A stretch of DNA of 64,000 bases, from the NCBI GenBank assembly GCA_038231275.1, contig JBBRLQ010000021.1, positions 68,957 to 132,956 of the forward strand. Direction: 5' to 3'. Positions 30,617 through 51,736 of the stretch are shown here, piece by piece (position 1 is the first letter of the stretch; each line of letters begins with the position of its first letter). A program made the translations under genes and the position numbers. Under the pieces are notes generated by a model. The model did no database searches. It worked only from the letters and a program-made list of their open reading frames with translations, and was not told the origin of the DNA. The DNA comes from Polyangiales bacterium. GTDB lineage: Bacteria; Myxococcota_A; Polyangia; Polyangiales; Polyangiaceae.

Positions 30617-32530
<1,914 letters not shown>

Positions 32531-32574
32531 GGGGTGTGGTCCTTCCGACAAGCGGGTTGCGCGCCCCTGAGCGA

Positions 32575-32632
32575 GCAACTTCCGGGCCCCGCCGCCGATG
32601 CACTCGCGGGCGCAAAGACGCGTCGTTTGCGC
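32575..32632 (-). promoter_or_regulatory. Sigma54-type promoter with an upstream palindrome for dnaK
   Basis: Minus-strand GGGCCCGGAAGTTGC (32575-32589); near-palindrome GCGCAAAGACGCGTCGTTTGCGC (32610-32632). Confidence 0.55.
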
Positions 32633-34264: not shown

Positions 34265-34912
34265 GTGTCCACCGACGACACCGCGCCTGCTCTGCTCGAG
34301 CGCGCGCTCGCGGGAGACCGGAGCGCGATGCACGCGCTCTTCGTACGCGTCGCGCCCGTCATTCAAGCGCGCATCGCGCGCGCGCTCCTTCGTCGAAGCC
34401 GCGCGTCGGGGCGCGATCCGCGGCAGGAGCTCCGCGACATGACGCAGGAGGTCTTCGTCGCGCTCCTCGCGGACGACGGCAAGACGCTACGGGCGTGGAA
34501 GGCGGAGCGCGGCATGTCGCTCGAGAACTTCGTCGGCCTCGTCGCCGAACGGCAGGTCGCGTCGATCATGCGCACCGGCAAGCGGAGCCCTTGGAAAGAG
34601 GATCCCGTCGTCGAGGAGGACCTCGCGCTCCACGCCGGCGCGAGCGACGGGGAGGGGATGGCGGCGTTGTCGCGCGACACGCTCCAGGCGCTCGTCGACC
34701 GGCTGCGGGAGGAGCTCACGCCGAAGATGCTGCGGCTGTTTTATGCGCTGTGGGTGGAGGAGCAGCCGGTCGCCCAAATATGTGAAACGATGGAGATGCA
34801 GCCCGACGCGGTCTACGCGGCCCGTTCGCGCATCGCCAAACGGGCCCGCGCCATCGCGGTCGAGCTCGAACGAGAAATGTCAGATTCCGGGCGGCGCCCG
34901 ACGAACTCCTAA
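34265..34912 (+). CDS. ECF RNA polymerase sigma factor
   Basis: DMTQEVFVAL region 2; region 4 VAQIC...DAVYAARSRI; no region 3. Confidence 0.88.
   Translation: MSTDDTAPALLERALAGDRSAMHALFVRVAPVIQARIARALLRRSRASGRDPRQELRDMTQEVFVALLADDGKTLRAWKAERGMSLENFVGLVAERQVASIMRTGKRSPWKEDPVVEEDLALHAGASDGEGMAALSRDTLQALVDRLREELTPKMLRLFYALWVEEQPVAQICETMEMQPDAVYAARSRIAKRARAIAVELEREMSDSGRRPTNS
34878..34905 (+). promoter_or_regulatory. ECF-like promoter TGTCAG-N18-CGAA inside the sigma gene 3' end, facing the anti-sigma gene
   Basis: TGTCAGATTCCGGG...CGACGAA closely matches the 34185-34211 copy. Confidence 0.65.
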
Positions 34913-35653: not shown

Positions 35654-38401
35654 TCAACGGACCAGGACGCGAAACGCGCCGTAGTCGGCGACGCCTTGCT
35701 TCCACGCGTCGATCTGCGCCTCGCGGAGCGCTTCGGCGACGTCTCCATCCGGCCGCAGATGCCGGTACAGAGCCGCCGCGAGGATCGCCGACGCCGCGTC
35801 GTCCACTGTGCGCGTCGCCGCCACCACCGCGCCCGCGCCGGCCACGAGGAAGGCCTGCGCGAGCCCCAGGCCTTCGGCTTGCGCCTCGCCCGACGTCCGC
35901 GCGGTCTCGCACCCGAGGAGCACCACGCCCGCCGGCGCGTGGGGAAGCGCGAGGATGTCGGCCACCGTGAGCTCGGAGTGATCGGCGAGAGGAAGCGCGC
36001 TCTGCCACCCATCGCGACCGGCGAACTTTCCGTGACCGGCGTAGTGGAAGAGGCGCGCGCCCGCCAGCGCGGACCTCACGGCCGCGCCGGTCGCCGACGC
36101 TCCCGTGAGCACGGAGACACGCGTCTCGCCCGCGTCGCGGAGCTGCGCGGTGACCGCGTCGACCTCGCGCCGCGCGAACGGCAGATCCGACGTGGGATCG
36201 CCCACGACGAGGACGCCCACCGAGACAGGATCGGCGGCCGGTGCCGCGCCGCGATCGGTGGGGTAGACGACGGCCATCTTGGCGACGAGCGGCGCCCCGT
36301 CCCACGGGAGCGCGTGCACGTCGATCGCGCGCGCGGCCCCGAGCGCCACGACGGCGAGGCGCGGGGCCGCGGCGAGCTCGACGCGAAACGGCGAGAGGAT
36401 CGCGCGGGTAAGGACCTCCGGCGACGCCGACGGATCGACCGCGCCGAGCTGCACGGCCCGTGTCTTGCGGCCCGCGGTGAGTAGCCCGAGGAGGCCGTGC
36501 TCGGTCGGGACGAGCGCGAGGGTGACGTCGCGCGTCGCGGAGGTGCGCCGGATCTTGTTCGGTTCGACGAGGACGCGCGCCAACGCCCCGTCGAGCGCCG
36601 CACGGGCCGCCTCTGCGCGGGCCGCACGCTTCGCGCCGCTCGCCGCGAGCGACTCCTTCGAGAGCTTCCAGTCGTCCGTCCCCTCCCGCTCGAGCGCCTC
36701 GCGCTCACGGCGGTAGGCGCCGACGGCGTCGAGCCACTCGTCGGCGGCGGACGGGGGAAGGGCCGCGAGGCGGTGCCGGCTCTCGAGCGCGTCGAGCACG
36801 CGCGATCGAATCCGAACGACCTCCCGCGCGGCGTCCTCCGGTCGCCTCATCGCGACGAGGAGCTCCACGCGGCGCGTATCCGCCCGCTCTTGCTCGCTGG
36901 CGAAGCTCTCGCGCCCCTCGCCGAGCGGAATGCTCACGAGCATGCGCTCGGTGAGCGCGGCCGCTTGCTCGAGCGCCGCGAGCGCGTCGGCGTCTCGGTG
37001 AAGCGTGGAGAGGGCGAGCGCGCGGCCGTCGAGGGCGAGCCGCAAGAACCCGTCGTCGCCAATGCCCCGCGCCATCGCCGCCATCTCGTCCCACGACGCG
37101 AGCGCGTCGCGTGCTCGCCCGCGCGCGAGCTCCACCTCGGCCCTGGTCCGCAGGCGATCGATCGTCACCTCCACCCTCGTGTGCGGCGCCGCGGCGACGG
37201 ACGCCCGCAGGTGCTTCTCCGCCTCGTCGACGCGACCCGCGCGAAGCTCGGCGCGAGCCATGTACGCCTCCAGGTTCGCGATACGGGCGGGATCGTACGA
37301 CGCTGGACAGCTCGTTCGGTACGTGACGAGCGCCTTCTCCAGCCACCCGCGCGCGTCCGCGGCGGCGAGGCCCTGCGCGTGCGTGCCGACGGCGCCGCGC
37401 AGACCGAGGAGGTCCGCCAGATCGCAGGGATCCATGTCCGCTTCGAACGCGCGCCGCTGGCCGTCGAGAATGGCGAGCGCGTCGTCGACGCGGCCGAGAT
37501 CGTCGAGCATGGAGGCCTCGAGCTGCTGCGTCATCCGCTCGAGGCGCACGAGGCCGAGCCGCGCGGTCTCCTCTTCGGCGAGGCGGCACTCGGCGAGCGC
37601 CTCGCGCGACTGGGCGGACATCCCCAGGATGGCGGCCGTGTAGTACCGGACGCGCGCCACACCGTCGGGGTAGTGAGCGGACAGCGCCGCTGCGCGCGCG
37701 AGGACGCGCCGGGCTTCGACCAGTCGCACTCGCGCGAGGAGCGAGAAGACGAGCGCGAACGCGTCGTCCGCGGCCTCGGAGGCGCGCCCCGCCGCGTCGC
37801 CGAGCCGAATCGACTCGTCGAACAATCGATCGACGTCGTCGTCGCGCCCGTCCGCCAGCGCGATCCGCGCGAGCGCTCCGAGGACCAGCCCGCCCTCACC
37901 GGCAGCGCGCGCCCGGGGCAGGTCCGCCTCGAGCCGGGCGCGCGCCTCGGCGAGCTTGCCCGCCGCGCGCAGCTCCGCCGCCTCGCGCACCGAAGCAAGC
38001 TTCGCGGGCGCGGGCGCGAGGGCGAGCGAGAACGCGCGACCGATCGCGGTGACCTCCAGCTTCCGGCCGCCTGCCGGCGCCAAGGTGATCAGCGCGCCTC
38101 CCCGAACGTCGATGCGCGACCGCACCTCCGCGGGCGCGCCGTCGATGGTGAGCGCGGGCGTGTCGGGCGGTGCGGGTACCCAGACGCGAAGCGCTCCGCC
38201 GGGCGCCATTTCGCAGACGCCCTCCTTGGTGACGGCCGCACATCCGGAGAAGCGCGCGCCCTCAATCGGGGGAAGCGGCGGCGCGGCGTCGGCGACCGCG
38301 CGCGGCTTCTCGCGGGCGCAACCAAGCGCAAGCGCGACCGCGAGGGCGCCCACGACGAGCAGCGCCCGACGCGTACGCTCCCGACCCGCTCCGGCGCGCA
38401 T
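35654..38401 (-). CDS. TPR-CHAT (caspase-like, clan CD) protease with a lipoprotein signal
   Basis: FHYAGHG and LLGCET catalytic dyad motifs; GLAQAFLVAGA; TPR-like helices; N-terminal LALGC. Confidence 0.9.
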   Translation of the reverse strand: MRAGAGRERTRRALLVVGALAVALALGCAREKPRAVADAAPPLPPIEGARFSGCAAVTKEGVCEMAPGGALRVWVPAPPDTPALTIDGAPAEVRSRIDVRGGALITLAPAGGRKLEVTAIGRAFSLALAPAPAKLASVREAAELRAAGKLAEARARLEADLPRARAAGEGGLVLGALARIALADGRDDDVDRLFDESIRLGDAAGRASEAADDAFALVFSLLARVRLVEARRVLARAAALSAHYPDGVARVRYYTAAILGMSAQSREALAECRLAEEETARLGLVRLERMTQQLEASMLDDLGRVDDALAILDGQRRAFEADMDPCDLADLLGLRGAVGTHAQGLAAADARGWLEKALVTYRTSCPASYDPARIANLEAYMARAELRAGRVDEAEKHLRASVAAAPHTRVEVTIDRLRTRAEVELARGRARDALASWDEMAAMARGIGDDGFLRLALDGRALALSTLHRDADALAALEQAAALTERMLVSIPLGEGRESFASEQERADTRRVELLVAMRRPEDAAREVVRIRSRVLDALESRHRLAALPPSAADEWLDAVGAYRREREALEREGTDDWKLSKESLAASGAKRAARAEAARAALDGALARVLVEPNKIRRTSATRDVTLALVPTEHGLLGLLTAGRKTRAVQLGAVDPSASPEVLTRAILSPFRVELAAAPRLAVVALGAARAIDVHALPWDGAPLVAKMAVVYPTDRGAAPAADPVSVGVLVVGDPTSDLPFARREVDAVTAQLRDAGETRVSVLTGASATGAAVRSALAGARLFHYAGHGKFAGRDGWQSALPLADHSELTVADILALPHAPAGVVLLGCETARTSGEAQAEGLGLAQAFLVAGAGAVVAATRTVDDAASAILAAALYRHLRPDGDVAEALREAQIDAWKQGVADYGAFRVLVR

Positions 38402-38468: not shown

Positions 38469-39092
38469 TCAAAGGCGGCAGGTGTCGCAGCCGCGCCCGC
38501 CGGTCGTGCCCGTCGGCAAGATCACGATGCACTGGTACAAATTGACGATGTACGCGATCTTCGTGTACTGGAGCGTCCCGCAAAACACCGAGCTGTCGAT
38601 GCGCGAGCCGGGCGGGGCGAAGGCCGAGCCGTCGGCGTTTCGCGCGTTCTCGTAGGCGTAGGTGCACACGAGATCGCTGGACACGAACGGGTTCGGTGCA
38701 TCGTAGTAGGCGTGCCGCTGATCCGCGCCGCCGTACGGCGCCACGGGGTAGCGGGTCGCGTACACCCCTGCGCCCGGCTCGCCCGGCGTCCAGAGTCCGC
38801 CGCCGGCGAGCGAAATGTCGGGACACGCCGCGAGGTACGACGGCACGCCAATCTGGTAACCGAGCTCGGTGTTGCAGATGGTGTTCGGCAACGTCGCGCA
38901 CACGAGCGGGGGCGGAGGCGGCGGTGAGCAGCTCGGATCGAAGACCGTGCACCTCCTCTTCAGCTGCACGCCCTCCCCCGGCAACGTGCTCGACGGCGGA
39001 TCCTGAGGAGTGCCCGAGCAGCCCGTCGCGAGGGCGGTGGCGAACGAGATCACGGCGAGGGACGTCGCGAGGGATGCGCGGAGGGTCGTCAT
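38469..39092 (-). CDS. Small Cys-rich lipoprotein
   Basis: Lipobox ATGC; GGAGG on the plus strand is not an RBS, so the start is assigned from the signal peptide; C-terminal GCDTC. Confidence 0.75.
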   Translation of the reverse strand: MTTLRASLATSLAVISFATALATGCSGTPQDPPSSTLPGEGVQLKRRCTVFDPSCSPPPPPPLVCATLPNTICNTELGYQIGVPSYLAACPDISLAGGGLWTPGEPGAGVYATRYPVAPYGGADQRHAYYDAPNPFVSSDLVCTYAYENARNADGSAFAPPGSRIDSSVFCGTLQYTKIAYIVNLYQCIVILPTGTTGGRGCDTCRL

Positions 39093-39251: not shown

Positions 39252-41138
39252 TCACCCCCGACGAAGCTGATCGAGAACGAACCGGATGCGAGCAGCGTCC
39301 TCGGGCCGGGTCGCTCGCGCCATCAAGAACTCGAGCACGCGCCCCACCTCTGGCCCCACGGCGGCGTGCTTTCCGACGAAGGACACGAGCGAGCCATCCA
39401 GCGCCGGGCTGGTTCCCCCCGAGATCACGGCTGCCGAAATGCGCGACAGCTCCTCCGCCGTCACCGGCTGCGCGTCCAGCGAGCGCAGCGCCGCCTCCTC
39501 GACCTCGGGCGCCGCATCGCGGATCAGATCCGTGAGCGCGCGCCGAACCTCCGGCTCCTTGAACCGCCGCAGCGCCCCCGCCGCGCTCGCCCGCGTGCGC
39601 GTTTCCTTGCTGTGCGCGTACGCCAGAATCCGCTGCCCATCGCCGGGCGCCGCCGCCGCCCCGAGCGCGGTCAAGAGCGCGCCTGTCTCCTTGGGCGTCC
39701 TGGCGGTGGCGAGGTCGGCGCGCAAGCGGCCAGCCATCGCGTCCGCGCGCGCGTCTTCACCTTCGCGCCGTGCCGCGAACGACACCGCCCCTGCCGTGTA
39801 CGCGGACGCGAAGCGCGCCTCGTCGCCGCGTGTCCGCGCCGACGCGTATGCCCGATCGACGAAGGCCAGGGTCTCCGGCGTCGGCGCCGGCACGAACGAG
39901 AGGCGCTGCAAAAGCGTGGGATACGCCGGACTCGTCCGCCCCGCCTCCGAGGCCAGCGCCTCGCACATGGCCGACTGCGCCTCCTTCGTCGACGCCGACG
40001 CGAGCAGATCCATCACGAGCCGGCGCTGCGCGTCGTTCGTCTTCGCCGCGGTGAAGAGCGGCACGAGCTTCTTCGCCAGCGCCGAATCCTGCAGGAGGAG
40101 CCCGGACGCGCGCGTGACGAAGCCCTCCTCGAGGGTCTTGCCGTCGTACGACCCCAACGTCCGCTCCGCGTCCTCGAACGAGAGATCACCGACGCGCTGC
40201 GCCAGCAGCTCGCGCTCAGGGACCTCACCGCGCCGTAGCGCGCCGGCCGCGCGCGCCTCGAGCGACGGATCGAGCGTCAGCGTCGTGGGTGCCTCGAAGG
40301 TGCTCACCTCGACGAGATCGAGGCGGAAGGTGGAGACCACACGAAGCGCGGGCTCGGCGCCCTTCTTCGCGGCGACGACGAGCGTCTCGCGATCGTCGAT
40401 GCGCGAGAGGTGCCCCTTCGGATCGAGCGCGATCGCCGCGTGTGCGTCGACGTCGCGCGCGCAACCCTCGCAGCCGATGAGCGCGTACAGCGCGTCGTAG
40501 CTGGTTCGCCGCCGCGTCATGGCAAGCGGGCCGTCCATCGAGTACGCGACGCGCGCCACTCCGGCCGGCGTCGTCTCCGTGCCGCTCCATTCGCGCGGGC
40601 CGTCCGCCGGCACCACGACGGTCATCGCGGCCACGAGCGTCTGCGTCACGCTCTTCCAGAGCTCGGGCGCCGTCGCCTTGTACAAGATGCGCTCGGGCTT
40701 GCCCGTCGGCGCGAGCTCGACGAACGCCTCCTGGTCCGCGAAGATCGCGCGCGCGGCGGCGTCGTCCCCCAGGAGATCGCCGCCGAGGATCTTCCACGCG
40801 TGCTCGTCGACTCGCGGCAGCGTCAGGGCAAGCACGGCGCGGTCGCCGTTCGTCCCGAGCGCCCGGAGCTCCAGCGCGCCCGCGAGTGCGATCGCCGAGG
40901 CGAGCTCCCCGTTCTCGCCGAGCCCCGGCGTCCTGGCCGACGTCGTGGACGCGAGGTCGAACGTGTAGCGGTAGCGGGTGCCGGTAGCCCACGCCAGGTG
41001 AGCGCGCGGGGCTTCGGTCTCGGTGGACCCGCTCGACGCGGCGTCCAGTGCGGTCGGGCCGCGCCGCGAAACGGCGACGGCCCCGAGGAGGAGGAGTGCT
41101 CCGAGCGCGGCGGCGCCGGCGAGGGTCCTGCGCTTCAC
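39252..41138 (-). CDS. Exported protein with a beta domain plus HEAT-like helical domain, resembling the vitellogenin/MTP N-terminal lipid-transport module
   Basis: N-terminal TM/signal; GTRYRY, ETTPAGVARVAY; helical repeats; GTG start overlaps the upstream stop. Confidence 0.7.
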   Translation of the reverse strand: MKRRTLAGAAALGALLLLGAVAVSRRGPTALDAASSGSTETEAPRAHLAWATGTRYRYTFDLASTTSARTPGLGENGELASAIALAGALELRALGTNGDRAVLALTLPRVDEHAWKILGGDLLGDDAAARAIFADQEAFVELAPTGKPERILYKATAPELWKSVTQTLVAAMTVVVPADGPREWSGTETTPAGVARVAYSMDGPLAMTRRRTSYDALYALIGCEGCARDVDAHAAIALDPKGHLSRIDDRETLVVAAKKGAEPALRVVSTFRLDLVEVSTFEAPTTLTLDPSLEARAAGALRRGEVPERELLAQRVGDLSFEDAERTLGSYDGKTLEEGFVTRASGLLLQDSALAKKLVPLFTAAKTNDAQRRLVMDLLASASTKEAQSAMCEALASEAGRTSPAYPTLLQRLSFVPAPTPETLAFVDRAYASARTRGDEARFASAYTAGAVSFAARREGEDARADAMAGRLRADLATARTPKETGALLTALGAAAAPGDGQRILAYAHSKETRTRASAAGALRRFKEPEVRRALTDLIRDAAPEVEEAALRSLDAQPVTAEELSRISAAVISGGTSPALDGSLVSFVGKHAAVGPEVGRVLEFLMARATRPEDAARIRFVLDQLRRG

Positions 41139-43552
41139 GGCTTCGGCACCACGTTGGGGGGCTGCGCCGTCGCGAGCGCGATGACCGGATAGCCCTTGTC
41201 GAGCGGCTTCCACAGATCGTGATCGTAGGAGACGCCGTCCCAGGAGAAGATCGTGTGCTCGATACGGTTGCAGCCGAAGATGTAACAGATCTCCGCGTAG
41301 GCCTTCACGTCGCCCTTGAGGAGAGTCAGGCTGAGGTGGGCGTTGTTCGTGAGGTGCAAGGCGAGCGTCTCGGTCGGCACCCCCTCGTCGTCGTAGAACG
41401 TCTCGGTCTTGAGCTTCACGCCGGCGGTGAACGGCAGTCGAACCTCGGCCAGAGTGACGTTGCCCTCGATGCCCGCTTCGGCCCCGAGCCCGGCAAATTC
41501 GCCGCCGATGGCGCCCCACGCGCGGCCCGTCGCCCTCGCATACGGCGACAGCGTACCGCTCAGCGCGACCTCGGGCGACAGCGCGCAGAGGTCGGTGCTC
41601 TGCGGGGCCTTCGCCGTCACCGTCGCGTCGAAGCCGACCGCGAGCTCCGCGCTCGCCCCCACCGTCACGGGCACGAAGCCGACGAAGAGCGTCTGGCTGT
41701 AGCTCGGCCCGCCCGACGCGGGCGGCGGCGCGAGGTGGAAGTCTCCGACGGTCGTGTCGCCATAGACCGGCACGTCGAGGATCGTGAGCGAAGCGTCGGT
41801 GACGAGATCGGGGTTACCCGCTGCGCCGGCCGACGCGTGGATGCTCGCCGTGGCGACGCCGATCGACTGCTTCAGGATGTGGACGGTGACCCCGACGTCG
41901 CCCCAAAGCTCCGGCTGCATGTTGCACACGGGCTGCGCGTCGGTCGACGCATGATCCATGTGCACGCCCCAGCGCATTTGATAGTTGTATTCTGCACTGA
42001 ACCAATCGGGGTCCCCGAGGCCGTTGCTGCCGACCTTCGAGTCGCCGACGGTGCCTTTGTCGATCCAGGGCAGATCCTTCACGACCTTGGTGCGCTGGTC
42101 CTCGGCGTATCCGAGCCACACCTCGAGCGCGTCCCAGTCGCTGCGCGCGTCGGCGCGGGTGGCGGAGGCGTTCATCGTCGGGAACTGCGAGACGAAGTTG
42201 TCGCCGGTGTCGCGCATGCAATGGGTGAAGTCGGCCTCGCGCTTGACGTCGGCGAGGTGGAGGTACTTGACGAGCGACTTGGGCGACCAGTCGCAGGAGA
42301 TGCCCGCCGGATCGAGGCACCCGTGGTCGATGCTCCCGTCGCGCGGGCTCGTGTGGCGCCACTCGCGGACGAGCGCCAGCATGAGCGCGTCCGTGTAGAA
42401 GAAGAACTCGAGGGTCTCGGCGGTGATCGGCGGCCGGTAGTTGCCGGGGCACGCCGGATCGGGCGGGACGTCGGGCATGCGCAGGTGTCCGCACGAGTCG
42501 TAGCGGGAGGGGTGGAGGTACTGCTCCGCCTTCACACCGAGCTTCGTGAGCTCGCCCTGGAACCGCGCGAGCGCCTGGGTGAAGGAGATCGAGCGGAGCT
42601 CGATCTTGCGGTACTCGGCCAGCGTGAGCGCGAGCGGCGCTTGCATCTCGCGCATCTCGAGATCGTGCGCCACGCCGTCGACGAAGCTGTAGTCCTCGGC
42701 GAACCCCGCGGCGAAGGCGGTCATGAGGGCCGTCGTCTCGTCGAGGCCGTAGAACCGGGCCATTCGCTCGTTGAGCCCCTGCACGATCATCGACGCGAAG
42801 AACGGATTCTTCTTCACGGTCTGCGCGACCATGATCTCGCCGAGCTGAGGGCGGAACTGGAAGGGCAGCGGAGAGCGGGCGCCGTCGCGCGAAAACAATG
42901 TCGGCTTGTCCATCCCCGGCAAGCCGTCGCCCGCCATCGCGAAGAGCTCGCCGAGGCAGAGGTAGTCCGACTTGCAGCTCGCGGCCGCCTCTTCGAAGCG
43001 CGTGTAGTCGTAGTACTTGTCGAAGACGTAGTCCTCGCACGACGCGATGGTCGTCGTCGTCGGGTGGCGCGAGCCGAGCTCGGGGTGGCGGCCGACGATA
43101 TCGAGGCCCGCGAAGGTCCCTGGCAGGAGGGCGTTCTGCGCGATGCTGGCATACGAGAGATCCGTGTTCAGCGCGCCGGTGCGCGACAGGGACGAGTCGT
43201 CGAACGGCTCTTGCGCGGCGTCGATGAGGATTCCGGGGTGGCGCGGCATCGTCGCCGGCAAGATGACCTGGTCGAGGCTCGCGCACGTCTGCTGGTTGGG
43301 CCCGCACCCCTGGTCAGCGGCCCACTGCCCGTGAAACGAGTTGGCGACGACGTCGCGGCACGCCGTCTCGTTGATCCGCTTGCAAAAATTGAGCGGCGAG
43401 GCGCGCATCTCCTTTTGGCACTCGGTCAGCGTCGGCGCTGGACAGTGGCGCGGAGGACCGGGCGGCAGCGGCGGCCCGATCTGGGCGCTCGCGGCGGCGC
43501 TGGCCGAGAGGATCGCCGAGACGGCAAGACAAAACGCGACACGTCGAGACAT
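41135..43552 (-). CDS. Secreted Cys-containing protein with a long C-terminal amphipathic beta-sheet
   Basis: Signal peptide; C-terminal third made of long alternating strands (e.g. VPVTVGASAELAVGFDATVTA). Confidence 0.8.
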   Translation of the reverse strand: MSRRVAFCLAVSAILSASAAASAQIGPPLPPGPPRHCPAPTLTECQKEMRASPLNFCKRINETACRDVVANSFHGQWAADQGCGPNQQTCASLDQVILPATMPRHPGILIDAAQEPFDDSSLSRTGALNTDLSYASIAQNALLPGTFAGLDIVGRHPELGSRHPTTTTIASCEDYVFDKYYDYTRFEEAAASCKSDYLCLGELFAMAGDGLPGMDKPTLFSRDGARSPLPFQFRPQLGEIMVAQTVKKNPFFASMIVQGLNERMARFYGLDETTALMTAFAAGFAEDYSFVDGVAHDLEMREMQAPLALTLAEYRKIELRSISFTQALARFQGELTKLGVKAEQYLHPSRYDSCGHLRMPDVPPDPACPGNYRPPITAETLEFFFYTDALMLALVREWRHTSPRDGSIDHGCLDPAGISCDWSPKSLVKYLHLADVKREADFTHCMRDTGDNFVSQFPTMNASATRADARSDWDALEVWLGYAEDQRTKVVKDLPWIDKGTVGDSKVGSNGLGDPDWFSAEYNYQMRWGVHMDHASTDAQPVCNMQPELWGDVGVTVHILKQSIGVATASIHASAGAAGNPDLVTDASLTILDVPVYGDTTVGDFHLAPPPASGGPSYSQTLFVGFVPVTVGASAELAVGFDATVTAKAPQSTDLCALSPEVALSGTLSPYARATGRAWGAIGGEFAGLGAEAGIEGNVTLAEVRLPFTAGVKLKTETFYDDEGVPTETLALHLTNNAHLSLTLLKGDVKAYAEICYIFGCNRIEHTIFSWDGVSYDHDLWKPLDKGYPVIALATAQPPNVVPKP

Positions 43553-43685: not shown

Positions 43686-45008
43686 TTACTCCACGGCGTA
43701 CACGTGGACCGCGAACCCGGCGAACGCATCTTGGAACACGCCGGAGGTCACCGGCACCGTGCGCCCTTCGCCGAGCACGGTAACCTTCGACGCCGGGCCC
43801 CGCTGGACGGTGAAGCTTGCGGTGCCGGCCGTCGTGCCCATCGACACCGCGAGCACGTAGAGCGTCCCGCCGCGTCGCTTCACGAGCGCGTCCACTTTGC
43901 CTCCGCCGGTGACCGCGACCTTCACCGCGTTCGTGATCGGCGGCGTGTCGAGCGCCGGCGCCAGCTCGCGGATCTGCGCGTTGATCGCCGACACTGCGGA
44001 CTTCATCGCCGGATCGTCGAGCAGCGCGTGATCGTCCTCGGTCGGCGTGAACTGGTGCACGAAATATCCGATGCCCATCGACCCGTGCACGATCGACATC
44101 CAGACCTCGGCCTTCACTTGCTCGGGCGTCGGCTTGCCGTTCGCCTGGCCGATGCGCGTGCACTCGATCCAGTTGTAGACGGGCTTCTTGTGGTCGACCC
44201 ACTGCCCGAGGCGATCGACGCCGAGCGGTACGTCGAGGAGGTCGAGCCCGTCGTTCACCGGGTAGAGATCGAACGAGACGATGTCGGCGCCTTTGCAGTA
44301 GTCGGGGTAGTCGGCGATGCCCGAGCAGCTGCCGCGCCCGACGTAACCGGTGTTGCCGACGCCCTGGCCGAGGTTCAGAAAGATCGGGCGCGTCGTGTCG
44401 GACTTTTGCATCGCCGTGTACTTCGACTGGATGGTGGCGGCGGAGATGCACGGTCCGTAGCCGCCTTTGCCATCGGGTTGCGCGTTGTCGGGCTCGTCGG
44501 TCTGCGCCCAGCCGTCGAGCGTCTTGTTGGCGACGCCGAGGGTCGCGGCGCTCTGGTCGACCAGGACATGCAGGCCCGCTTGCGCGATCGTCGACAGATC
44601 CGCGGCGGTCGGCGTGTTCCACAGACCAACGTAGGTGTTGACGCCGATCGCGGCGTACTGCGCCGCGAGACTCGGGTCCTGGAGCCAGACGCCGATGGGG
44701 AAGAACGACGGGTCGGCCGGCGGCCCGTTCGTGAAGCGCGCGTAGTACGCGGAGCCTCCGGCCCACGGTCCGTACTCGTCGCCGTAGGCGTTCGCGGCGT
44801 CCGGCGTCGCGCTCGCGTCTGAGCCCCCATCTGCGCCCGGCGGCGACGCGTCGTCGCCTGGCAACGCACCCCGCGCGTCGGTGTCCGCGCTGGCGTCGGC
44901 GCGTGCACCGCCGGTTGGGCCGAGCGTCGTGTCGTCGCCGGCGGAGCATGCCGCGAGGAGTAGCAGCGACACGTAGATCGCAGCGGTAGCGCGGCTCGAG
45001 CGAATCAT
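43686..45008 (-). CDS. Glycoside hydrolase-like (TIM barrel) lipoprotein
   Basis: Lipobox LAAC; FFPIGVW, DEPDN, DIVSFDLYP, VHGSMGIGYF. Confidence 0.7.
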   Translation of the reverse strand: MIRSSRATAAIYVSLLLLAACSAGDDTTLGPTGGARADASADTDARGALPGDDASPPGADGGSDASATPDAANAYGDEYGPWAGGSAYYARFTNGPPADPSFFPIGVWLQDPSLAAQYAAIGVNTYVGLWNTPTAADLSTIAQAGLHVLVDQSAATLGVANKTLDGWAQTDEPDNAQPDGKGGYGPCISAATIQSKYTAMQKSDTTRPIFLNLGQGVGNTGYVGRGSCSGIADYPDYCKGADIVSFDLYPVNDGLDLLDVPLGVDRLGQWVDHKKPVYNWIECTRIGQANGKPTPEQVKAEVWMSIVHGSMGIGYFVHQFTPTEDDHALLDDPAMKSAVSAINAQIRELAPALDTPPITNAVKVAVTGGGKVDALVKRRGGTLYVLAVSMGTTAGTASFTVQRGPASKVTVLGEGRTVPVTSGVFQDAFAGFAVHVYAVE

Positions 45009-45021
45009 GACGCGATGGGGT

Positions 45022-45117
45022 GCAAGCGCAGCGCCCGCCCGCGGCCTCGCATTTCCGAGGATTTGTGCGAACGGCGGGGTGCTCGATCCCCCTCGCGCGA
45101 GGGGGATGGTTCCCCCT
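45022..45117 (-). promoter_or_regulatory. Sigma54-type promoter with two AGGGGGAT-N2-ATCCCCCT-like sites
   Basis: Minus-strand GGGCGCTGCGCTTGC (45022-45036); sites at 45076-45093 and 45100-45117. Confidence 0.7.
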
Positions 45118-45174
45118 GGGCCCACGCGGCGGCGGAAGCGCCCTCTTTACGCCCCGATGGTATGCTCCTCGGCC

Positions 45175-46113
45175 GTGGAGATCGCTCGCGACAGGACCGC
45201 GCACCTCCTGTCGGCGGGGATCACGGCGTTCGCGCTCACCTTCGCCGCGCCGGCCGTCGCCGCGCCCACCGACGAGGCCGACGCGCTCTTCGAAGAGGGC
45301 CGGCGCCTCATGGACGAGGGGAAGCTGCCGGACGCGTGCGCCAAGCTCGAACGGAGCTTTCAGCTCGCGCCGCGCCTCGGCACGATGCTGAACCTCGGCG
45401 CGTGCACCGAGCGGCGCGGTCAGCTCGCGCGCGCGATCGCCCTGTACGAGCGCGCGGCGACCCTCGCGCGCCAGACGGGCCGCGCCGATCGCGAGGCGGT
45501 GGCGCGCGAGTACGCCGCCGCGCTTGAGGCCAAGGTCGGCAAGCTCGTCGTCGTCCTCGAGGAGCCCGCCGCCGATCAGCTCACGCAGATCGACGGCGAG
45601 ACGATCTCCACGCGGGGGGGCCTCGTGCCGCTCGACCCCGGGCGGCGCCGCCTCGTCGCGCGCGCGGCCGGTCGCGCGCCGTTCGAGAAGGTGATCGACG
45701 TGACCGTCGGGGCGACGATCACCGTGAAAATTCCGAGGCTCGCCGCGCTGCCTCCGGCGGAGGACGCGCCTCGCGCGAGCAGCACGCGGACGTGGGTGGT
45801 CGCGTCCGGCGTCGCGCTCACGGTCGTCGGGGCGTCGGTCGGGACGTACTTCGGCCTCCGCGCGCGCTCGAAGCACGACGCGTACACCGCGCAGTGCGAC
45901 GCGCGCGGCTGCACGCCGGATGGACTGACGCTGAGCGAGGACGCGCGGACGGCGGGGAACGTCTCGACCGTCGCGTTCGCGGTCTCCGGCGCCGCCCTCG
46001 CGGGCACGATCGTCGCGCTCGTCCTCTTGCCGGGCCCCCACGCGCAGCCCGCGCGCGTGACGGCGCGCGTCGTGCCGTCGCTCGGCGGGCTATCGCTCGC
46101 GGGGAGCTTCTGA
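45175..46113 (+). CDS. TPR + PEGA-like envelope protein
   Basis: ADALFEEG...GTMLNLGAC; paralogue of 10618-11619; ends GSF. Confidence 0.8.
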   Translation: MEIARDRTAHLLSAGITAFALTFAAPAVAAPTDEADALFEEGRRLMDEGKLPDACAKLERSFQLAPRLGTMLNLGACTERRGQLARAIALYERAATLARQTGRADREAVAREYAAALEAKVGKLVVVLEEPAADQLTQIDGETISTRGGLVPLDPGRRRLVARAAGRAPFEKVIDVTVGATITVKIPRLAALPPAEDAPRASSTRTWVVASGVALTVVGASVGTYFGLRARSKHDAYTAQCDARGCTPDGLTLSEDARTAGNVSTVAFAVSGAALAGTIVALVLLPGPHAQPARVTARVVPSLGGLSLAGSF

Positions 46114-46115
46114 TC

Positions 46116-47468
46116 GTGGCGGCCGACAAGGACACCGAGACGGCGACGTCCGCGATCGGGCACTGGGTCTCTCCCGACGGCGCGGTCCTCGTCGTGCTCG
46201 ACGGCGACGCCGTGCAGCGCGAGGTCAAGATCCCCGGCCGCATCGGCGGCGTCCTCAAGATCGGCAAGGCGCCCGACAACCAGCTCGTTTTGCCGGACGC
46301 CACCGTCTCGCGTTACCACCTCGAGATCGTCCGCGGCGACCACGGCATCGTCGTACGCGATCTCGGGAGCCGCAACGGCACGTTCATCGGCGGCGCGCGC
46401 ATCAAGGAGGCGACCGTCGAGCCGGGCTCCCTCCTCAAGATCGGCGACGTGAGCCTGCTCGTGCGCGTGGACCTCGCCGGAGCCATCGTCCCGCCGAGCC
46501 CTCACACGCGCTTCGGCTACGCGCACGGCCGCAGCATGCTCATGCGCCGCCTCTTCGGCCTCCTCGAGCGCGTCGCGCCGAGCGAGGCGTCCGTGCTCCT
46601 CATCGGCGAGACGGGGACCGGCAAGGACATCCTCGCGCGTTCGCTCCACGACGCGAGCCCCCGCGCGCGCGGCCCCATGGAGGTCGTCGACTGCAGCGCC
46701 ATCGCCAGCGGTGTCATCGAGAGCGAGCTCTTCGGGCACGAGCGCGGCGCGTTCACCGGCGCCGTGAGCGAGCACGAGGGGGCGTTCGAGCGCGCGCGCG
46801 GCGGCACGGTCTTCCTCGACGAGATCGGTGAGCTGCCTCTCGACGTTCAGCCCAAGCTCCTCCGCGTCCTCGAGTCGCGTCAGATCCGCCGCGTGGGCGG
46901 CAAGAAGACGATCGACGTGGACGTCCGCATCGTGTCGGCGACCACCCGCGATCTCGCAGAAGAAGCGCGCGCCGGGCGGTTCCGACAAGACCTGTATTTT
47001 CGGCTCGCCGTCGTCGTCGCGCACGTGCCCGCGCTTCGCGAGCGGACGGAGGACGTCGACGTCATCGCCGAGCAGATGCTGACCGGCTTCGCGCCGGGGC
47101 TGACGCTCGATCCCCAGGCGCTCGCGCAGCTGCGCTCGTACGCATGGCCGGGCAACGCGCGCGAGCTGCGAAACGTGCTGGAGCGCGCGGCGATCCTCGC
47201 GCAGGCGTCCGGCGCGCGCTCGCTCCAGGGCTTCGACCTCGGGCAGCCCGCGCCGACCGGCGGACCGCTGCACGAGTTCGTGGAGGGCGAGTCGTACGGC
47301 GACGCGCGCGCCCGCGTGGAGCTCGCCTTCGAGCGCCAGTTCGTCACCTGGATCCTCGGCCTCCACCGCGGCAACATCGCAGCGGCCGCGCGCGCGGCGA
47401 AGATGGATCGAAAGTACCTGGGAGACCTCGCGCGCAAGCACGGCCTCTCGCCGACGGGCGGGCGCTGA
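46116..47468 (+). CDS. FHA-domain sigma54-dependent activator (bEBP)
   Basis: FHA motif SRYH...[32 protein letters not shown]. Confidence 0.95.
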
Positions 47469-47487: not shown

Positions 47488-48966
47488 CTAGACGAGGCCG
47501 GGCATCGGCCCCTTGAACCCGAGCCCCGGATCGTCGATCCCGAAGTGCGCGTCGGGGAAGCCGAAGGCGTTGAGGATCGACGTGAAGAGGTTGTGCGTGC
47601 CCGTCTTGGATTGGTAGGCGCGCGGATCGGCGGCGGTGTTGAAGTTGAGGTGCCGGCCCGTGCGGAACGCGCCGCCAGCCGACCCCGCCATGAGGAGCGG
47701 CATGTTGTTCTCGCTGTGGAACGAGCCGTTCGAGAACTCGCTCGTGTAGAGCATCAGCGTGTTGTCGAGCATCGTGCCGTTTCCCTCGGGCACGCTGTCG
47801 AGCCCCTCGAGCAGGCGCTGGAAGAGGCCGATGCACCAGCCACGGTTGGCGACCATCTCGTCGAGCCACTGCTGCTGCTTCGCGAACTGGGTGCCCTTCG
47901 CGCCGCAGTCGCTCGCGACGTGGTGCAGCGAGTGACCGATGTCGAACGCGACGTCGCCGAACGGCGTGGGCAGCCAGTGGGTGATGATGTCCGCGAGCTC
48001 CAACGTGGCGACTTGGGTGAGGCCGCACCGCATCGCCGCGAGGATGATGTCGACCATGATCGGGCCCACGTGCTCTGCGTCGGCGTCCTGCACCTTGTGA
48101 TCGACGTTGATCGGCGTGCACGTCACCGTCTGGAGCGTCTTGATGCGCCGCTCGAGCTCGCTCAGCTGCGTGAGGTGCGCGTCGACGACCTGACGGTCCT
48201 GCGATGAGATCTTCGGCTGAAGGGCCTTGTAGCCATCCATGACGCCCTCGAGGACGCTGACGCCCATCGCCTGACGCCGCACGAGCTCGGGGTTCGGCGT
48301 GCCGGAGCCGACGCCGCCGAGGTACGTGTCGAAGGCCTTGCCGGGGTTCGTCTCGGAGTTGACGGGGCTCGCAGGACCGGAGAAAAAGGGCGTTCCGTAC
48401 TGGTGCCCGTCGACCATCACGTTCATGGACGGGAAGGGGAGCGGGGTCTGCGCCGTGAGACGCTTGGCGAGCACCTGATCGAGCGACGGGCCCTGCGCGA
48501 GCACGATCTGGTTGCCGGCGGCGTCGGTCGACTCGGTGGCCTTCGCCGACGTCATGATCGTGCTGTTCGCCCAGCGGTGGTCGCCGAGGTACGGCGACTG
48601 GATCACGCCCGCCGCGTTGTCGACGCCGCTCAAGAGGAGCAGCTTGCTCTTGTGCGCCTCCAGCGCCGCGTGAATGGGACCGAGGACAAGCGTCTCGCCG
48701 GGATCCTTCGGGGCCCACAGATCGTGCCCTTGCTCGGGGCCCGTGCCGTCGAGCCGGTCGCCGAGCTTGTTGATCGGGTAGCGCTGCACGCTACTCGCGG
48801 TGCCGCCGTGGCGAAAGACGACGATGAAGCGCTTGGCGATGCTGGCGGTGTTCTGCGGGTTTCCCCACGAGTCGCCGTGCGTCGCCTCGAGGACCGGCAG
48901 CGCCAGCATGAACCCGCCCGCGGCCCGGAGGAACGCGCGACGCCCGAAGTTCGTCCCTCGCTTCAT
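47488..48966 (-). CDS. DUF1552 family Tat-exported protein
   Basis: GRRAFLR...ALPVLE Tat-like leader; SLDQVLA, DAHL...ELERR, GTMLDNTL. Confidence 0.88.
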   Translation of the reverse strand: MKRGTNFGRRAFLRAAGGFMLALPVLEATHGDSWGNPQNTASIAKRFIVVFRHGGTASSVQRYPINKLGDRLDGTGPEQGHDLWAPKDPGETLVLGPIHAALEAHKSKLLLLSGVDNAAGVIQSPYLGDHRWANSTIMTSAKATESTDAAGNQIVLAQGPSLDQVLAKRLTAQTPLPFPSMNVMVDGHQYGTPFFSGPASPVNSETNPGKAFDTYLGGVGSGTPNPELVRRQAMGVSVLEGVMDGYKALQPKISSQDRQVVDAHLTQLSELERRIKTLQTVTCTPINVDHKVQDADAEHVGPIMVDIILAAMRCGLTQVATLELADIITHWLPTPFGDVAFDIGHSLHHVASDCGAKGTQFAKQQQWLDEMVANRGWCIGLFQRLLEGLDSVPEGNGTMLDNTLMLYTSEFSNGSFHSENNMPLLMAGSAGGAFRTGRHLNFNTAADPRAYQSKTGTHNLFTSILNAFGFPDAHFGIDDPGLGFKGPMPGLV

Positions 48967-50645
48967 CACGGCGTTCCCTTTCGCATGTACTGGAAGGCGG
49001 GGCTGTCGATGAGGCCGACGAGCGCGTCGCGGAGGCTCCCCGACGCGGCGAGGCGGTCCTGCACGTACTTGAGCGACGTGGCCTCCTGCGCGCCGACGTC
49101 GCGCGCGAACGCGGCGCGCCAGGTGCGAGAAGCGATGCAGTCCTTCACCTGCCGGCTCGCGGCGAGCTTGGCGGAGAGAGCGACCGCCCCGTCGAGCGCG
49201 CCGGCGACGTCGCTGCCGAGCAGATCTCCCGCGGTGTCGATGTCGGCGGTGTACGTGACGCCAGCTGGCGAGACGCCCTTCTCCTTGTCCTGCCACTGCC
49301 CCAGCGCGTCGTAGTGCCCGAACGCGAAGCCGGTCGGGTTCAGCTTCTGGTGGCAGCTCGCGCAGACCGGATCGAGCATCGTTTTCGCATCGACGGTCTG
49401 GCGAATGGAGAGCGGCTTTCCGGACGGATCGGTCTCGCCGCCCTTGATCATGACGTCCATCGCGGCGGGCGGCGGCGGCGGGAAGGTCGTGCACATGAAC
49501 TCGCGCCACACCGCCGAGCCGCGGCGAATGGGGGAGGGGATGTCGGGGTTCGCGTAGACGAGCAGGAACGCCGCGCGCGTCGCGATGCCGGCGCGCTGGG
49601 CGGCGGGCAAGGTCACCCACGCCCACGTGTCTCCCTGCGGCGCGCCGTCTTTGACGCCGTAGAGCGCCGCGAGGGGGCCGTTGACGAACGCGTCGGTGGA
49701 AGTGAAGAGCGCGTCGACTTTTCCGCCCTGCTCCCAGACGCGCCCGACGAGCTCCTGGGTTTCGCGACGCACCGCCGCGCGCAACGCAGCGTTGTCGCCG
49801 GGAAAGCGGGCGGGATCCTTCACCGCCTCTTCGATCGACACGTGCCGCGCGGTCCCATCGAGCTCCATCCACGCCGTCATGAACTCGATGATCTTCGCGC
49901 GCGCGCGCGGATCGTCGAGCATGCGCTTGGCCTGCGCGCGAAGCCCGTCACCCTTCAGCTGCCGCTGCGCCGCCGCCGCGAAGAGCGCATCGTCGGGCAT
50001 CGAATCCCAGAGGAAGTACGACAAGCGGCTCGCGAGCTCGTACTGCGTCACGCTGAGGAGGCCGGGCGGGAGGCCGTCCGTCGCCTCTCCCTCCTCGTGC
50101 ACGTACACGACCTGCGGCGACTGGAGCATGACGCGCGCGAGGACGTCGAGGCTGTCGGCGAACGAGAACGTCGTCCGCGCGGTCTTGTAGATGCCGGTGA
50201 GCCAGGAGAGCTCGTCGGGCGTGACCGGATGACGGAACGCCTTCGTTCCGAAGTCAGTGATGAACTTCGTCGCGCAGTCGGCGGTGCCCGCTCCGGCGAC
50301 GTCGCACGTGGCGATCTTCTTGTGGGCGCCGAGCGCGGTGAGCTGCGTCGCGGCGTCGTCGAGCTTGCTCACCGTGAGGAGCGATGGGATTCCGCCGGCG
50401 TCGGTCGGGATCTTGATGCTCGCGACGTCGGCGTCGGTCAGGCCGAGGAGATCGCGCACGGTCCGGCGGTACTGCGTCGGCGTGAGCGGATGGAGCGCGG
50501 ACGGCGCCGCATCGAGCGTGACGCCCGCGGGGACCTCGGGGCCGCCCGGCACCTTCGGCGGCGGGCTCTGGCTCCCGCTCACGTCCTCTTGCGCCGACGT
50601 GCAGGCCACGAGCGCCGCGGCTCCCCAGACCAAGAGGCTCCTCAT
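48966..50645 (-). CDS. DUF1592/DUF1588-family lipoprotein with a CxxCH motif
   Basis: QYRRTVRDLLG, ELASRLSYFLW, SPIRRG, CASCH...NPTGFAF. Confidence 0.9.
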   Translation of the reverse strand: MRSLLVWGAAALVACTSAQEDVSGSQSPPPKVPGGPEVPAGVTLDAAPSALHPLTPTQYRRTVRDLLGLTDADVASIKIPTDAGGIPSLLTVSKLDDAATQLTALGAHKKIATCDVAGAGTADCATKFITDFGTKAFRHPVTPDELSWLTGIYKTARTTFSFADSLDVLARVMLQSPQVVYVHEEGEATDGLPPGLLSVTQYELASRLSYFLWDSMPDDALFAAAAQRQLKGDGLRAQAKRMLDDPRARAKIIEFMTAWMELDGTARHVSIEEAVKDPARFPGDNAALRAAVRRETQELVGRVWEQGGKVDALFTSTDAFVNGPLAALYGVKDGAPQGDTWAWVTLPAAQRAGIATRAAFLLVYANPDIPSPIRRGSAVWREFMCTTFPPPPPAAMDVMIKGGETDPSGKPLSIRQTVDAKTMLDPVCASCHQKLNPTGFAFGHYDALGQWQDKEKGVSPAGVTYTADIDTAGDLLGSDVAGALDGAVALSAKLAASRQVKDCIASRTWRAAFARDVGAQEATSLKYVQDRLAASGSLRDALVGLIDSPAFQYMRKGTP

Positions 50646-50658
50646 GTCCACGCAGTTT

Positions 50659-50754
50659 GCAAGGCGCGGTCCACGCGGGAACCGGGCGCCCAGATGCGAC
50701 ATTAGCGACAGGAGGGGGATCGATCCCCCTCCCCGAAGGGGGATGTGTACCCCT
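50659..50754 (-). promoter_or_regulatory. Sigma54-type promoter with two AGGGGGAT-N2-ATCCCCCT-like sites
   Basis: Minus-strand TGGACCGCGCCTTGC (50659-50673); perfect palindrome at 50713-50730 and a second site at 50737-50754. Confidence 0.78.
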
Positions 50755-50765
50755 CAACGGCGCAC

Positions 50766-51644
50766 CTATTTTCCTGCGGCTTTGAGGTGCGCGAGCACCC
50801 GGTCGCCGAGGAGGACGTGGTCGTAGACGGCGAGCTCGTCGATCGCGCCGGAGTACGCGTTGCCGGTGCACGTGCAGTTCTGTCCGCCGATGGTGAAGCC
50901 CTTGCCGATCGCAGGAATGGAGACGCTGTTGGCGCCGGAGGACGCGCCGAGTGTGCCGTCGACGAAGACCCTCAGGATGTTCCCGTCCCAGGTCGCGAGC
51001 ACGTGGTGCCAGGTGTCGGCCGGCGGCGCGGTCGCCGTCGACGACGCGTGATCGGCGGGGCTCGCGTAGCGCTCGAAGCCGATCCCGTCGCTCCCGCCGA
51101 GGAGGTTCCACCCGAAGCGCGTGGTGTCCCAGTCCTCGTGATCGAGCACGAACCCGAGCCCGCTCTGCGCCGCGTCGCGCTCGAGCCACATCTCGACGGA
51201 GAACGCGGCGGTGCCGGCGAACTCGGCGATCGCGGGCATCGTGATCGGCGCTTGGCCGCTCAGGTGCACGGCGCCGTTGGGATCGCCGGTGAGCGCGCCC
51301 GGCACCGCGTAGGTCGCGCCGAAGGTCGGGTACGTGCCGTCGGCGGCGCGCATCTCGTCGCGCGCGGTGCCGCCGCCGGTCTCGCCGAAGCGCAAGTAGA
51401 AGAGCGGCGCGTCGGCCATGACTTCGCGCGCGTAGGCGGAGGCGATCGCGCCGTCGGAGCCGTCGCGTCCGCCGGCTCCATCGGTCACGACGTCGGCGCT
51501 GCCGTCCGTTCCCCCGTCGGCGCCGGACCCGCCTTCCGTCGCGCCGGCGTCGGCGTCCCGGAGGTGCTGCGGATCGTTGCCGAGGAGGGCGTTGCACGCG
51601 ACGAGCGAGCACGTGAGTGCCATCGTCCCGAGCGCGCGCGCCAT
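50766..51644 (-). CDS. LamG/concanavalin-like domain lipoprotein
   Basis: FSVEMW, WHHVLATWDG...VFVDG, GAIDELAVY; lipobox LVAC. Confidence 0.88.
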   Translation of the reverse strand: MARALGTMALTCSLVACNALLGNDPQHLRDADAGATEGGSGADGGTDGSADVVTDGAGGRDGSDGAIASAYAREVMADAPLFYLRFGETGGGTARDEMRAADGTYPTFGATYAVPGALTGDPNGAVHLSGQAPITMPAIAEFAGTAAFSVEMWLERDAAQSGLGFVLDHEDWDTTRFGWNLLGGSDGIGFERYASPADHASSTATAPPADTWHHVLATWDGNILRVFVDGTLGASSGANSVSIPAIGKGFTIGGQNCTCTGNAYSGAIDELAVYDHVLLGDRVLAHLKAAGK

Positions 51645-51736
51645 GGCGACATGGTGGCGGCCTTTCACCCTCGCGACAAGGTCGGCGAGCGCGCGAGAGT
51701 GCCGGCGCCCGTTCGCGCTGGTACGATGGGACGGTA

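Follow-up and report, generated by a model that had tools for sequence, protein, structure and literature searches.

A bacterial gene pair encoding a predicted homologue of the N-terminal module of large lipid transfer proteins and a putative secreted partner

Large lipid transfer proteins (LLTPs), which include MTP, apoB, vitellogenin and apolipophorin, are regarded as an invention of animals and are central to lipoprotein and yolk biology; to our knowledge, the question of their origin is open. Here we consider two adjacent genes in a 64,000-nucleotide stretch of DNA from a Polyangiales bacterium (GenBank assembly GCA_038231275.1, contig JBBRLQ010000021.1, positions 68,957 to 132,956 of the forward strand), which has a G+C content of about 70% and is referred to below as the window. 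We conclude with high confidence, from modelled structure, that the downstream gene encodes a bacterial structural homologue of the LLTP barrel-plus-solenoid module. The upstream gene encodes a protein that is a near-obligate genomic partner of this family.

The described system closest to the downstream gene product is MTP, which consists of a β-barrel (residues 21-297), a helical domain (298-603) and C-terminal sheets (604-884); the barrel disulfide that is conserved in LLTPs is given in the same source as Cys174-Cys194 in MTP and Cys156-Cys182 in lipovitellin (PMC6717300). The lipid-binding C-terminal domain of MTP spans about 280 amino acids (aa) in two six-stranded sheets, and the protein is a heterodimer whose partner is PDI. 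Vitellogenins are secreted animal proteins of 1000-1800 aa with open β-sheet and vWD domains and a large funnel cavity. In apoB, the barrel and helical module is followed by a lipid-wrapping belt of about 4000 residues, to which nothing in the bacterial pair is comparable.

The two genes lie on the minus strand of the window, at the coordinates given in an earlier note, which had been made from the sequence alone and had read them as an operon resembling a split bacterial LLTP. We refer to the product of the upstream gene as P0002 and to that of the downstream gene as P0001. The relevant features are:

41135..43552, minus strand: P0002 gene (open reading frame and translation), 805 aa, putative secreted cysteine-rich partner
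39252..41138, minus strand: P0001 gene, 628 aa, predicted homologue of the LLTP N-terminal module (Vitellogenin_N-like, with HEAT-like repeats)
41135..41138, minus strand: GTGA overlap, four bases common to the TGA stop of P0002 and the GTG start of P0001
43559..43565, minus strand: GAAGGAG, a Shine-Dalgarno-like sequence 6 nt 5′ of the P0002 ATG, from reading of the sequence

The GTGA overlap suggests translational coupling of the two genes. Coupling had been proposed in the earlier note, and this part stood; the gene order did not, because the strand-bearing P0002 is encoded by the upstream gene and not by the downstream one. In the family alignment, P0001 homologues begin at an aligned position that matches the GTG start. 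The peptides quoted in the note (GTRYRY, FVELAPTGKPERI, ETTPAGVARVAY, DLLASASTKEAQ, LSFVPAPTPETL, LTALGAA and AAGALRRF) are all present in the translation of 39252-41138. Scans for promoters and terminators around the pair returned nothing above chance, and a PADLOC scan for defence systems gave no match.

P0001 was modelled with AlphaFold2 from a 141-sequence alignment, which gave a predicted local distance difference test score (pLDDT) of 92.6 and a predicted template modelling score (pTM) of 0.79. The model contains the following parts, together with a low-confidence linker between helix 9-23 and the barrel:

P0001 5-24 (41067..41126, minus strand): N-terminal hydrophobic helix (modelled at 9-23), probably an uncleaved signal anchor in N-in orientation
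P0001 54-297 (40248..40979, minus strand): predicted β-barrel of some 12 strands, with a 14-residue helix (159-172) inside; most blocks have a pLDDT above 90
P0001 308-627 (39258..40217, minus strand): predicted helical solenoid of about 20 helices (AlphaFold2 model)
P0001 503-554: HEAT_2 match inside the solenoid

The arrangement described by the note, a β region followed by helical repeats, is thus borne out. In a Foldseek search of the PDB, ranks 1-11 were all LLTP chains, aligned over about 640 columns and spanning the whole query. The best structural match was MTP (MTP alpha; 6i7s at 2.9e-16 with 13% identity, and 8eoj at 7.3e-11), followed by lipovitellin (1lsh, 1.6e-15, 653 columns), which had the highest template modelling (TM) score, 0.52 by query length. 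Honey bee vitellogenin (9enr) was found at 2.3e-11. The βα1 region of apoB100 (9bd1, 9bd8, 9ea7) was matched both as the barrel and helical module (9bd1, 6.2e-12) and as a barrel-only chain (9bd8_A, 1.1e-7). The first match outside the LLTPs was a designed repeat protein at 8e-5. Two LLTP features are seen here: a barrel of about 12 strands wrapped on a longer helix, in the predicted model, and a two-layer helical solenoid directly after the barrel, in both the model and the family profile. Set beside MTP, P0001 54-297 and 308-627 correspond to MTP 21-297 and 298-603, in the same order and with near-equal lengths. The A and C sheets that follow the helical domain on the same LLTP chain are absent, in that P0001, unlike vitellogenin, stops after the solenoid, at residue 628. 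The claim that 39252-41138 has LLTP N-terminal architecture is therefore upheld by the model, by the Foldseek ranks and by sequence evidence at the family level.

The sequence evidence comes mostly from relatives of P0001. P0001 itself matches Pfam Vitellogenin_N (PF01347) with 14.6 bits and an E-value of 0.013, residues 368-541 falling on profile positions 352-541; it matches HEAT_2 (PF13646) with 23.3 bits, under the cut-off of 27.7, and NCBIfam gave nothing useful. An exhaustive profile search of 1.84 billion representatives returned 971 relatives at E≤1e-3 and 318 at E≤1e-30, and among the best 150 listed of the 971, most are 600-650 aa and matched over most of their length. These are representatives clustered at 50% identity, and the family is accordingly large and deeply diverged. 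A reading of the pair as rare, which came from a word-indexed search with two relatives of P0001 and five of P0002, was overturned by the profile and hidden Markov model (HMM) searches. In the ESM Atlas, P0001 falls (score 0.95-0.98) among bacterial clusters whose proteins are about 520-670 aa long and in which Vitellogenin_N is present in 41-75% of members; most of these clusters are from Myxococcota, and some are from Planctomycetota and Pseudomonadota. When 75 relatives were scanned singly, Vitellogenin_N was found at E≤1e-3 in 35 and HEAT_2 in 74; the gathering score of Vitellogenin_N was reached by 6 of 24 relatives, including MXAN_7514 and MXAN_0002. The Vitellogenin_N matches begin at about residue 345-370, some 100 residues ahead of the HEAT_2 region.

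Searches of PDB sequences with a 141-member profile point in the same direction. Lipovitellin 1lsh_A, the best LLTP match by sequence profile, was found at 1.7e-9 (query 366-531 on chain 338-510) and MTP 6i7s_G at 9.7e-6, with MTP 388-504 in register. Designed HEAT (alphaRep) chains outscored the LLTPs, solely over query 480-556. PBS-lyase-type HEAT proteins (HEAT_2, alphaRep) match P0001 over some 75 residues only, have no barrel and are far weaker than LLTPs in Foldseek. Two shorter relatives (L026:8328-9221 and L051:8848-9687) correspond to the helical half of the P0001 family only (profile about 317-615) and have no P0002-like gene nearby.

The earlier note had also pointed to a barrel motif. 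The motif is present as E-x4-G-x-A-x3-Y (E188, G193, A195, Y199), with alanine at the position of the cysteine; its standing as an LLTP motif is the note's own statement. G193 does not vary in alignments A4 and A5, and in A3 it reaches a conservation of at least 90%, as do W184 and Y199. E188 is free of variation in the 12-sequence A5 alone, and the majority of A3 sequences have glutamate there.

As to location, a hydrophobic N-terminal segment with a median length of 20 residues occurs in 131 of the 141 family members. The mean net charge is +2.7 before the segment and +0.8 in the ten residues after it, and the side before is the more positive in 106 of the 131. A lipobox was found in only 5 of the 141 members, and no Ala-x-Ala cleavage site was obvious by eye. 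Because of the charge bias, the few lipoboxes and the lack of a visible cleavage site, we infer that P0001 is held by an uncleaved signal anchor with the N terminus inside, which would place the LLTP-like module in the periplasm.

The genomic distribution of the pair was sampled with a degenerate DNA motif, taken from the most conserved stretch of the P0001 family and run on contigs of one genome per species. The motif matched 113 stretches, of which 80 were taken with their flanks (loci labelled L). A near-full homologue of P0001 was present in 49 of the 80 loci, the other 31 being chance or partial matches. In 42 of these 49 loci, the gene immediately upstream, on the same strand, is a P0002 homologue, and in three (L046, L058 and L060) the homologue is immediately downstream; none was found in L004, L005 and L031, despite at least 2.5 kb of upstream sequence, and L014, at a contig edge, was left out. 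P0002 homologues therefore adjoin P0001 homologues, in either order, in 45 of 48 testable loci. No fused form of the two proteins was found in the 49 loci, no search aimed at fused forms having been made. The distances within the two families are correlated (Mantel r 0.82, reached by none of 999 permutations), a result to which we give no weight because shared phylogeny alone produces such a correlation. The loci with the pair are almost all from Myxococcota (Myxococcus, Corallococcus, Archangium, Vitiosangium, Hyalangium, Sorangium and Enhygromyxa, together with assemblies of Nannocystaceae, Polyangiaceae and Labilithrix). This distribution says little about other phyla, because the motif fixes one leucine codon as CTN and so favours GC-rich genomes.

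P0002 has no family match in Pfam, NCBIfam or PADLOC and no usable neighbour in the ESM Atlas. Its parts can be described as follows:

P0002 1-24 (43481..43552, minus strand): Sec-type signal peptide, MSRRVAFCLAVSAILSASAAASA followed by Q, from by-eye reading of the sequence
P0002 25-500 (42053..43480, minus strand): mostly helical, cysteine-rich region whose length varies in the family (alignments A2 and A6; low-confidence model)
P0002 510-795 (41168..42025, minus strand): conserved amphipathic β-strand region, candidate lipid-facing sheets (hydropathy, about 12 modelled strands, predicted interface)

The family alignment A6 comprises 46 P0002 homologues, obtained with an HMM of six sequences that found homologues in 45 of the fetched loci. 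Family members are about 700-1150 aa, with a variable N-terminal part, and N-terminal hydrophobic segments recur among them. P0002 has 19 cysteines; those conserved in A6 are C172, C412, C420 and C445, which lie in the 25-500 region along with a conserved CDWSP motif, and C543 and C656. C543, C656 and C761 are the conserved cysteines within the strand region (A2 and A6). The long amphipathic strands that had been noted at the end of the partner are a family-wide property, since a strong period-2 alternation of hydropathy occurs in 43% of 10-residue windows in 510-795 and in 0% of those in 40-500 (A6). In the low-confidence model of P0002, helices give way after residue 492 to about 12 strands of 13-32 residues. 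At 290 aa, the strand region is alike in size to the lipid-binding C-terminal domain of MTP. One homologue, in L038, gives a Pfam Vit_open_b-sht match (E 0.0042) in which its residues 718-814, within the strand region, align to profile positions 199-294; we take this weak sequence match as a lead and not as proof.

Two members of the family are unusual in their layout. In L037:1136-8026, a 2297-aa open reading frame, which may be over-extended, has the P0002 homologue as its C-terminal part and DUF7948, β-propeller (SBBP) and DUF11 domains in its N-terminal part. In L035:10340-12733, the homologue is spread over two adjacent open reading frames (profile 40-212 and 425-776), which could be due either to a frameshift or pseudogene or to an assembly error.

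A complex of the two proteins was predicted from P0001 45-628 (alignment A3) and P0002 400-805 (alignment A6) in three runs with three controls. The runs scored 0.73, 0.01 and 0.61, with a median of 0.61, and the best of the three controls scored 0.01. In the calibration of the tool, 116 of 157 solved complexes attained that mark, as did 2 of 215 mismatched pairs, counts that hold only roughly here, with our own alignments in use. The partner was modelled with a pLDDT of 61 or more, and agreement between the runs extends to 28% of contacts or more. In the model, the strand region of P0002 is set on the helical domain and barrel of P0001. The predicted interface of P0001 comprises the first barrel strands (64-83), residues 163 and 167 in the central helix and helices that form a regular stripe (311-617); that of P0002 lies within residues 498-745 and is densest at 584-638. 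P0002 is thus predicted from modelling to be a physical partner of P0001. The proposal that the two genes act together is supported by the adjacency in 45 of 48 loci and by a complex prediction that passed its controls, and we consider it very likely that the genes are functionally linked.

These observations can be combined into a reading of the pair as a two-chain bacterial relative of LLTPs that would work as a lipid carrier, the chance of which, taken as a whole, we put at about even. P0001 would be held in the inner membrane by its single N-terminal helix, with the LLTP-type barrel and solenoid exposed to the periplasm, and P0002 would be exported by its Sec signal peptide and stabilised by disulfides. 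The C-terminal amphipathic strands of P0002 would then dock on the inner face of the P0001 solenoid and on the barrel, at the place that is occupied in MTP and lipovitellin by the lipid-binding A and C sheets. Together, the two chains would surround a hydrophobic surface for lipid or other hydrophobic cargo in the cell envelope, and the cargo could be passed between membranes or to vesicles. The role in lipid scavenging or membrane targeting that the earlier note had proposed is likewise conjectural.

The term split, in the sense of gene fission, is unsupported. The usual order has the putative sheet protein first, and P0002 has about 480 additional N-terminal residues without an LLTP counterpart; because both misfit a simple fission, we speak of a two-chain relative instead of a split gene. 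MTP carries its sheets on its own chain, whereas here the candidate sheets are on a separate, putatively secreted protein with the extra 480-aa region. P0001, moreover, appears to be membrane-anchored and is without the conserved barrel disulfide.

A number of points weigh against the reading as a two-chain lipid carrier. On the side of P0001, the Vitellogenin_N score of 14.6 bits lies under the gathering cut-off of 24 bits, and the matches in relatives always fall on profile positions of about 330-590, the helical part, in register with their own numbering. Part of this helical region matches generic HEAT repeats more strongly than Vitellogenin_N. A barrel-only profile (A7, 50 sequences) found no LLTP at E≤10 among PDB sequences, so that homology at the sequence level is confined to the helical domain. 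The LLTP barrel disulfide is not kept, Ala195 occupying the motif position, and conservation throughout the bacterial family is impossible, since cysteine is entirely absent from 20 of the 141 members (a further 51 have one only). On the side of P0002, the AlphaFold2 model from a six-sequence alignment is poor (pLDDT 38.8), and a Foldseek search with it gave no match at E≤1e-3, with porins and pore-formers listed beside MTP. MTP 8eoj_B was nominally first in that search (4.8e-3, probability 0.11, TM 0.07), a match that we treat as meaningless. An LLTP Pfam match is lacking in 45 of the 46 P0002 homologues, and PDB sequence searches with the A2 and A6 profiles and with the L038 homologue alone returned nothing. 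The claim that the partner supplies the sheets of a lipid cavity is accordingly no more than plausible: the strands, the complex prediction and the weak Vit_open_b-sht match in one homologue of 46 speak for it, and the poor model and the lack of a significant fold or sequence match speak against it.

Further such points concern the complex and the pair as a whole. One of the three complex runs failed, at 0.01, and the pass of the prediction may in part be recall of the solved single-chain LLTP fold, in which case it would show likeness and not binding. Conservation at the interface is no higher than elsewhere in the two proteins, the observed values being reached by 1218 of 5000 and 774 of 5000 random sets. 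The P0002-first order and the extra 480-aa region misfit a simple split of an LLTP gene, as discussed above. Finally, the formation of LLTP-like sheets by the P0002 strands is a proposal, as is any binding or transfer of lipid by the pair.

The alternatives are best weighed together with what is recorded for Myxococcus xanthus, a harmless and genetically tractable model organism. There the orthologue of P0001 is MXAN_7514, which is named a Vitellogenin domain-containing protein in UniProt and a hypothetical or HEAT-repeat protein by NCBI, whose name for P0001 orthologues is HEAT repeat domain-containing protein. The vitellogenin label is thus already in the databases for the orthologue, as an automatic annotation. 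In strain DK1622, MXAN_7514 adjoins dnaA, and its paralogue MXAN_0002, which has no P0002-like neighbour, is on the other side of dnaA. The pair is also directly beside dnaA in L033:4736-8069 (M. xanthus AM003) and in L028, where P0002, P0001, dnaA and the paralogue are laid out as in M. xanthus and the neighbouring genes are closely alike; L028 is titled Comamonas sp. KCTC 72670, an organism name that seems doubtful. By synteny, the P0002 orthologue in M. xanthus would be MXAN_7513. Table 3 of PMC3222651 assigns MXAN7513, a hypothetical protein, to the outer-membrane fraction and to the β-barrel class, with one peptide. A literature match for MXAN_7515 was set aside, as it seems to be a misprint for 7415 (the context reads MXAN_7515-_7422 and EpsZ/MXAN_7415). 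Within the full-text literature, outside of which subscription journals and supplements lie, we found no published study of bacterial LLTP homologues or of these genes.

The listing of MXAN7513 speaks for the main alternative, in which the pair is a tether across the envelope: P0002 would be an outer-membrane β-barrel or pore, and P0001 an inner-membrane HEAT and barrel scaffold that holds or regulates it. The amphipathic strands would also suit a membrane barrel, porins are among the non-significant Foldseek matches of the poor P0002 model, and the adjacency of the genes and the complex prediction fit this alternative too. On the other hand, the proteomic support consists of a single peptide, and the barrel label comes from a prediction scheme. 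Outer-membrane β-barrels typically have a C-terminal aromatic β-signal, short strands of membrane length and few or no cysteines. P0002, in contrast, ends in NVVPKP with no terminal aromatic residue, has strands modelled at 13-32 residues, and keeps C543, C656 and C761, of its 19 cysteines, conserved inside the strand region. The predicted interface uses the strands against the solenoid, which would be impossible if they were buried in a membrane, and the specific LLTP fold of P0001 is left unexplained. We regard the tether as unlikely, while ranking it first among the alternatives.

A second alternative, which we consider quite improbable, makes P0002 a pore-forming or membrane-attacking protein that is secreted for predation, with P0001 as its chaperone, anchor or immunity factor. 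The amphipathic strands, which are long and hairpin-like, and the many disulfides would suit a pore-former, the loci are almost entirely from Myxococcota, a predatory group, and MACPF, gasdermin and aegerolysin-partner pores are among the Foldseek matches of the P0002 model. None of these matches is significant, however, with none at E≤1e-3 and TM values of 0.05-0.09; there is no Pfam toxin family or PADLOC match, the pair in Myxococcus is an ordinary chromosomal gene pair by dnaA, and here too the LLTP fold of P0001 goes unexplained. Least probable of all is a convergent likeness, in which P0001 would be a generic HEAT protein that carries an unrelated β-sandwich and the pair would have a non-lipid role such as protein scaffolding: the predominance of HEAT_2 over Vitellogenin_N in the family (74 against 35 of 75), the alphaRep and other HEAT chains at the top of the PDB sequence search and a barrel without sequence match to LLTPs would agree with it, but the whole chain, barrel included, aligns to five different LLTPs, the E-values of which surpass those of all HEAT and armadillo proteins by eleven orders of magnitude, the barrel-only chain of apoB is matched as well, the Vitellogenin_N matches start about 100 residues ahead of HEAT_2 and in register, and the domain order and lengths equal those of MTP.

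The surroundings of the pair contain the following genes:

30617-32578, minus strand: DnaK
34265-34912, plus strand: 215-aa open reading frame, no Pfam match
35654-38401, minus strand: secreted protein of 915 aa whose C-terminal domain is CHAT protease-like, just downstream of the pair
38469-39092, minus strand: 207-aa putative lipoprotein of no family, just downstream of the pair
43686-45125, minus strand: 479-aa open reading frame directly upstream of P0002, unmatched in Pfam and PADLOC and without a counterpart in the fetched loci
45792-47468, plus strand: FHA-domain sigma-54 activator, 2.2 kb upstream, on the opposite strand
48966-50702, minus strand: PSD/PSCyt-domain protein (DUF1592, DUF1588, DUF1595, DUF1585)
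50766-51668, minus strand: Laminin_G_3 lectin-like protein

No third gene is conserved as a neighbour across the loci. Ser/Thr kinases (12 loci) and sigma-54 activators similar to that in the window (5 loci) were considered as a third gene and rejected, in that their positions vary and both are abundant in such genomes. No convincing sigma-54 promoter was seen by eye in the 133-nt region upstream of P0002. The CHAT gene, the lipoprotein and other flanking genes are common only to the closest relative, L053. Homologues of the 215-aa open reading frame (37-39% identity) adjoin the P0001 homologue in L017 and L063, and one is also present in L053.

Finally, we note what the properties of the pair could mean for the history of LLTPs and for the bacterial envelope. 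The large family, its common barrel-plus-solenoid fold and the near-constant pairing make it a candidate for a prokaryotic relative, or even a precursor, of the LLTPs. We raise, as a speculation that is more probably wrong than right, the idea that an ancient two-chain bacterial LLTP, found chiefly in Myxococcota, assembles in the periplasm around a lipid-holding cavity and moves lipid between the two membranes and that the animal LLTPs descend from its fusion. If this were true, the order seen in L046, L058 and L060, with the gene of the LLTP module first, would be the arrangement from which such a fusion could arise. For the bacteria themselves, we suggest that the pair points to a possible new system for handling lipid in the envelope, besides Mla, Lpt and the AsmA/TamB-type bridges.

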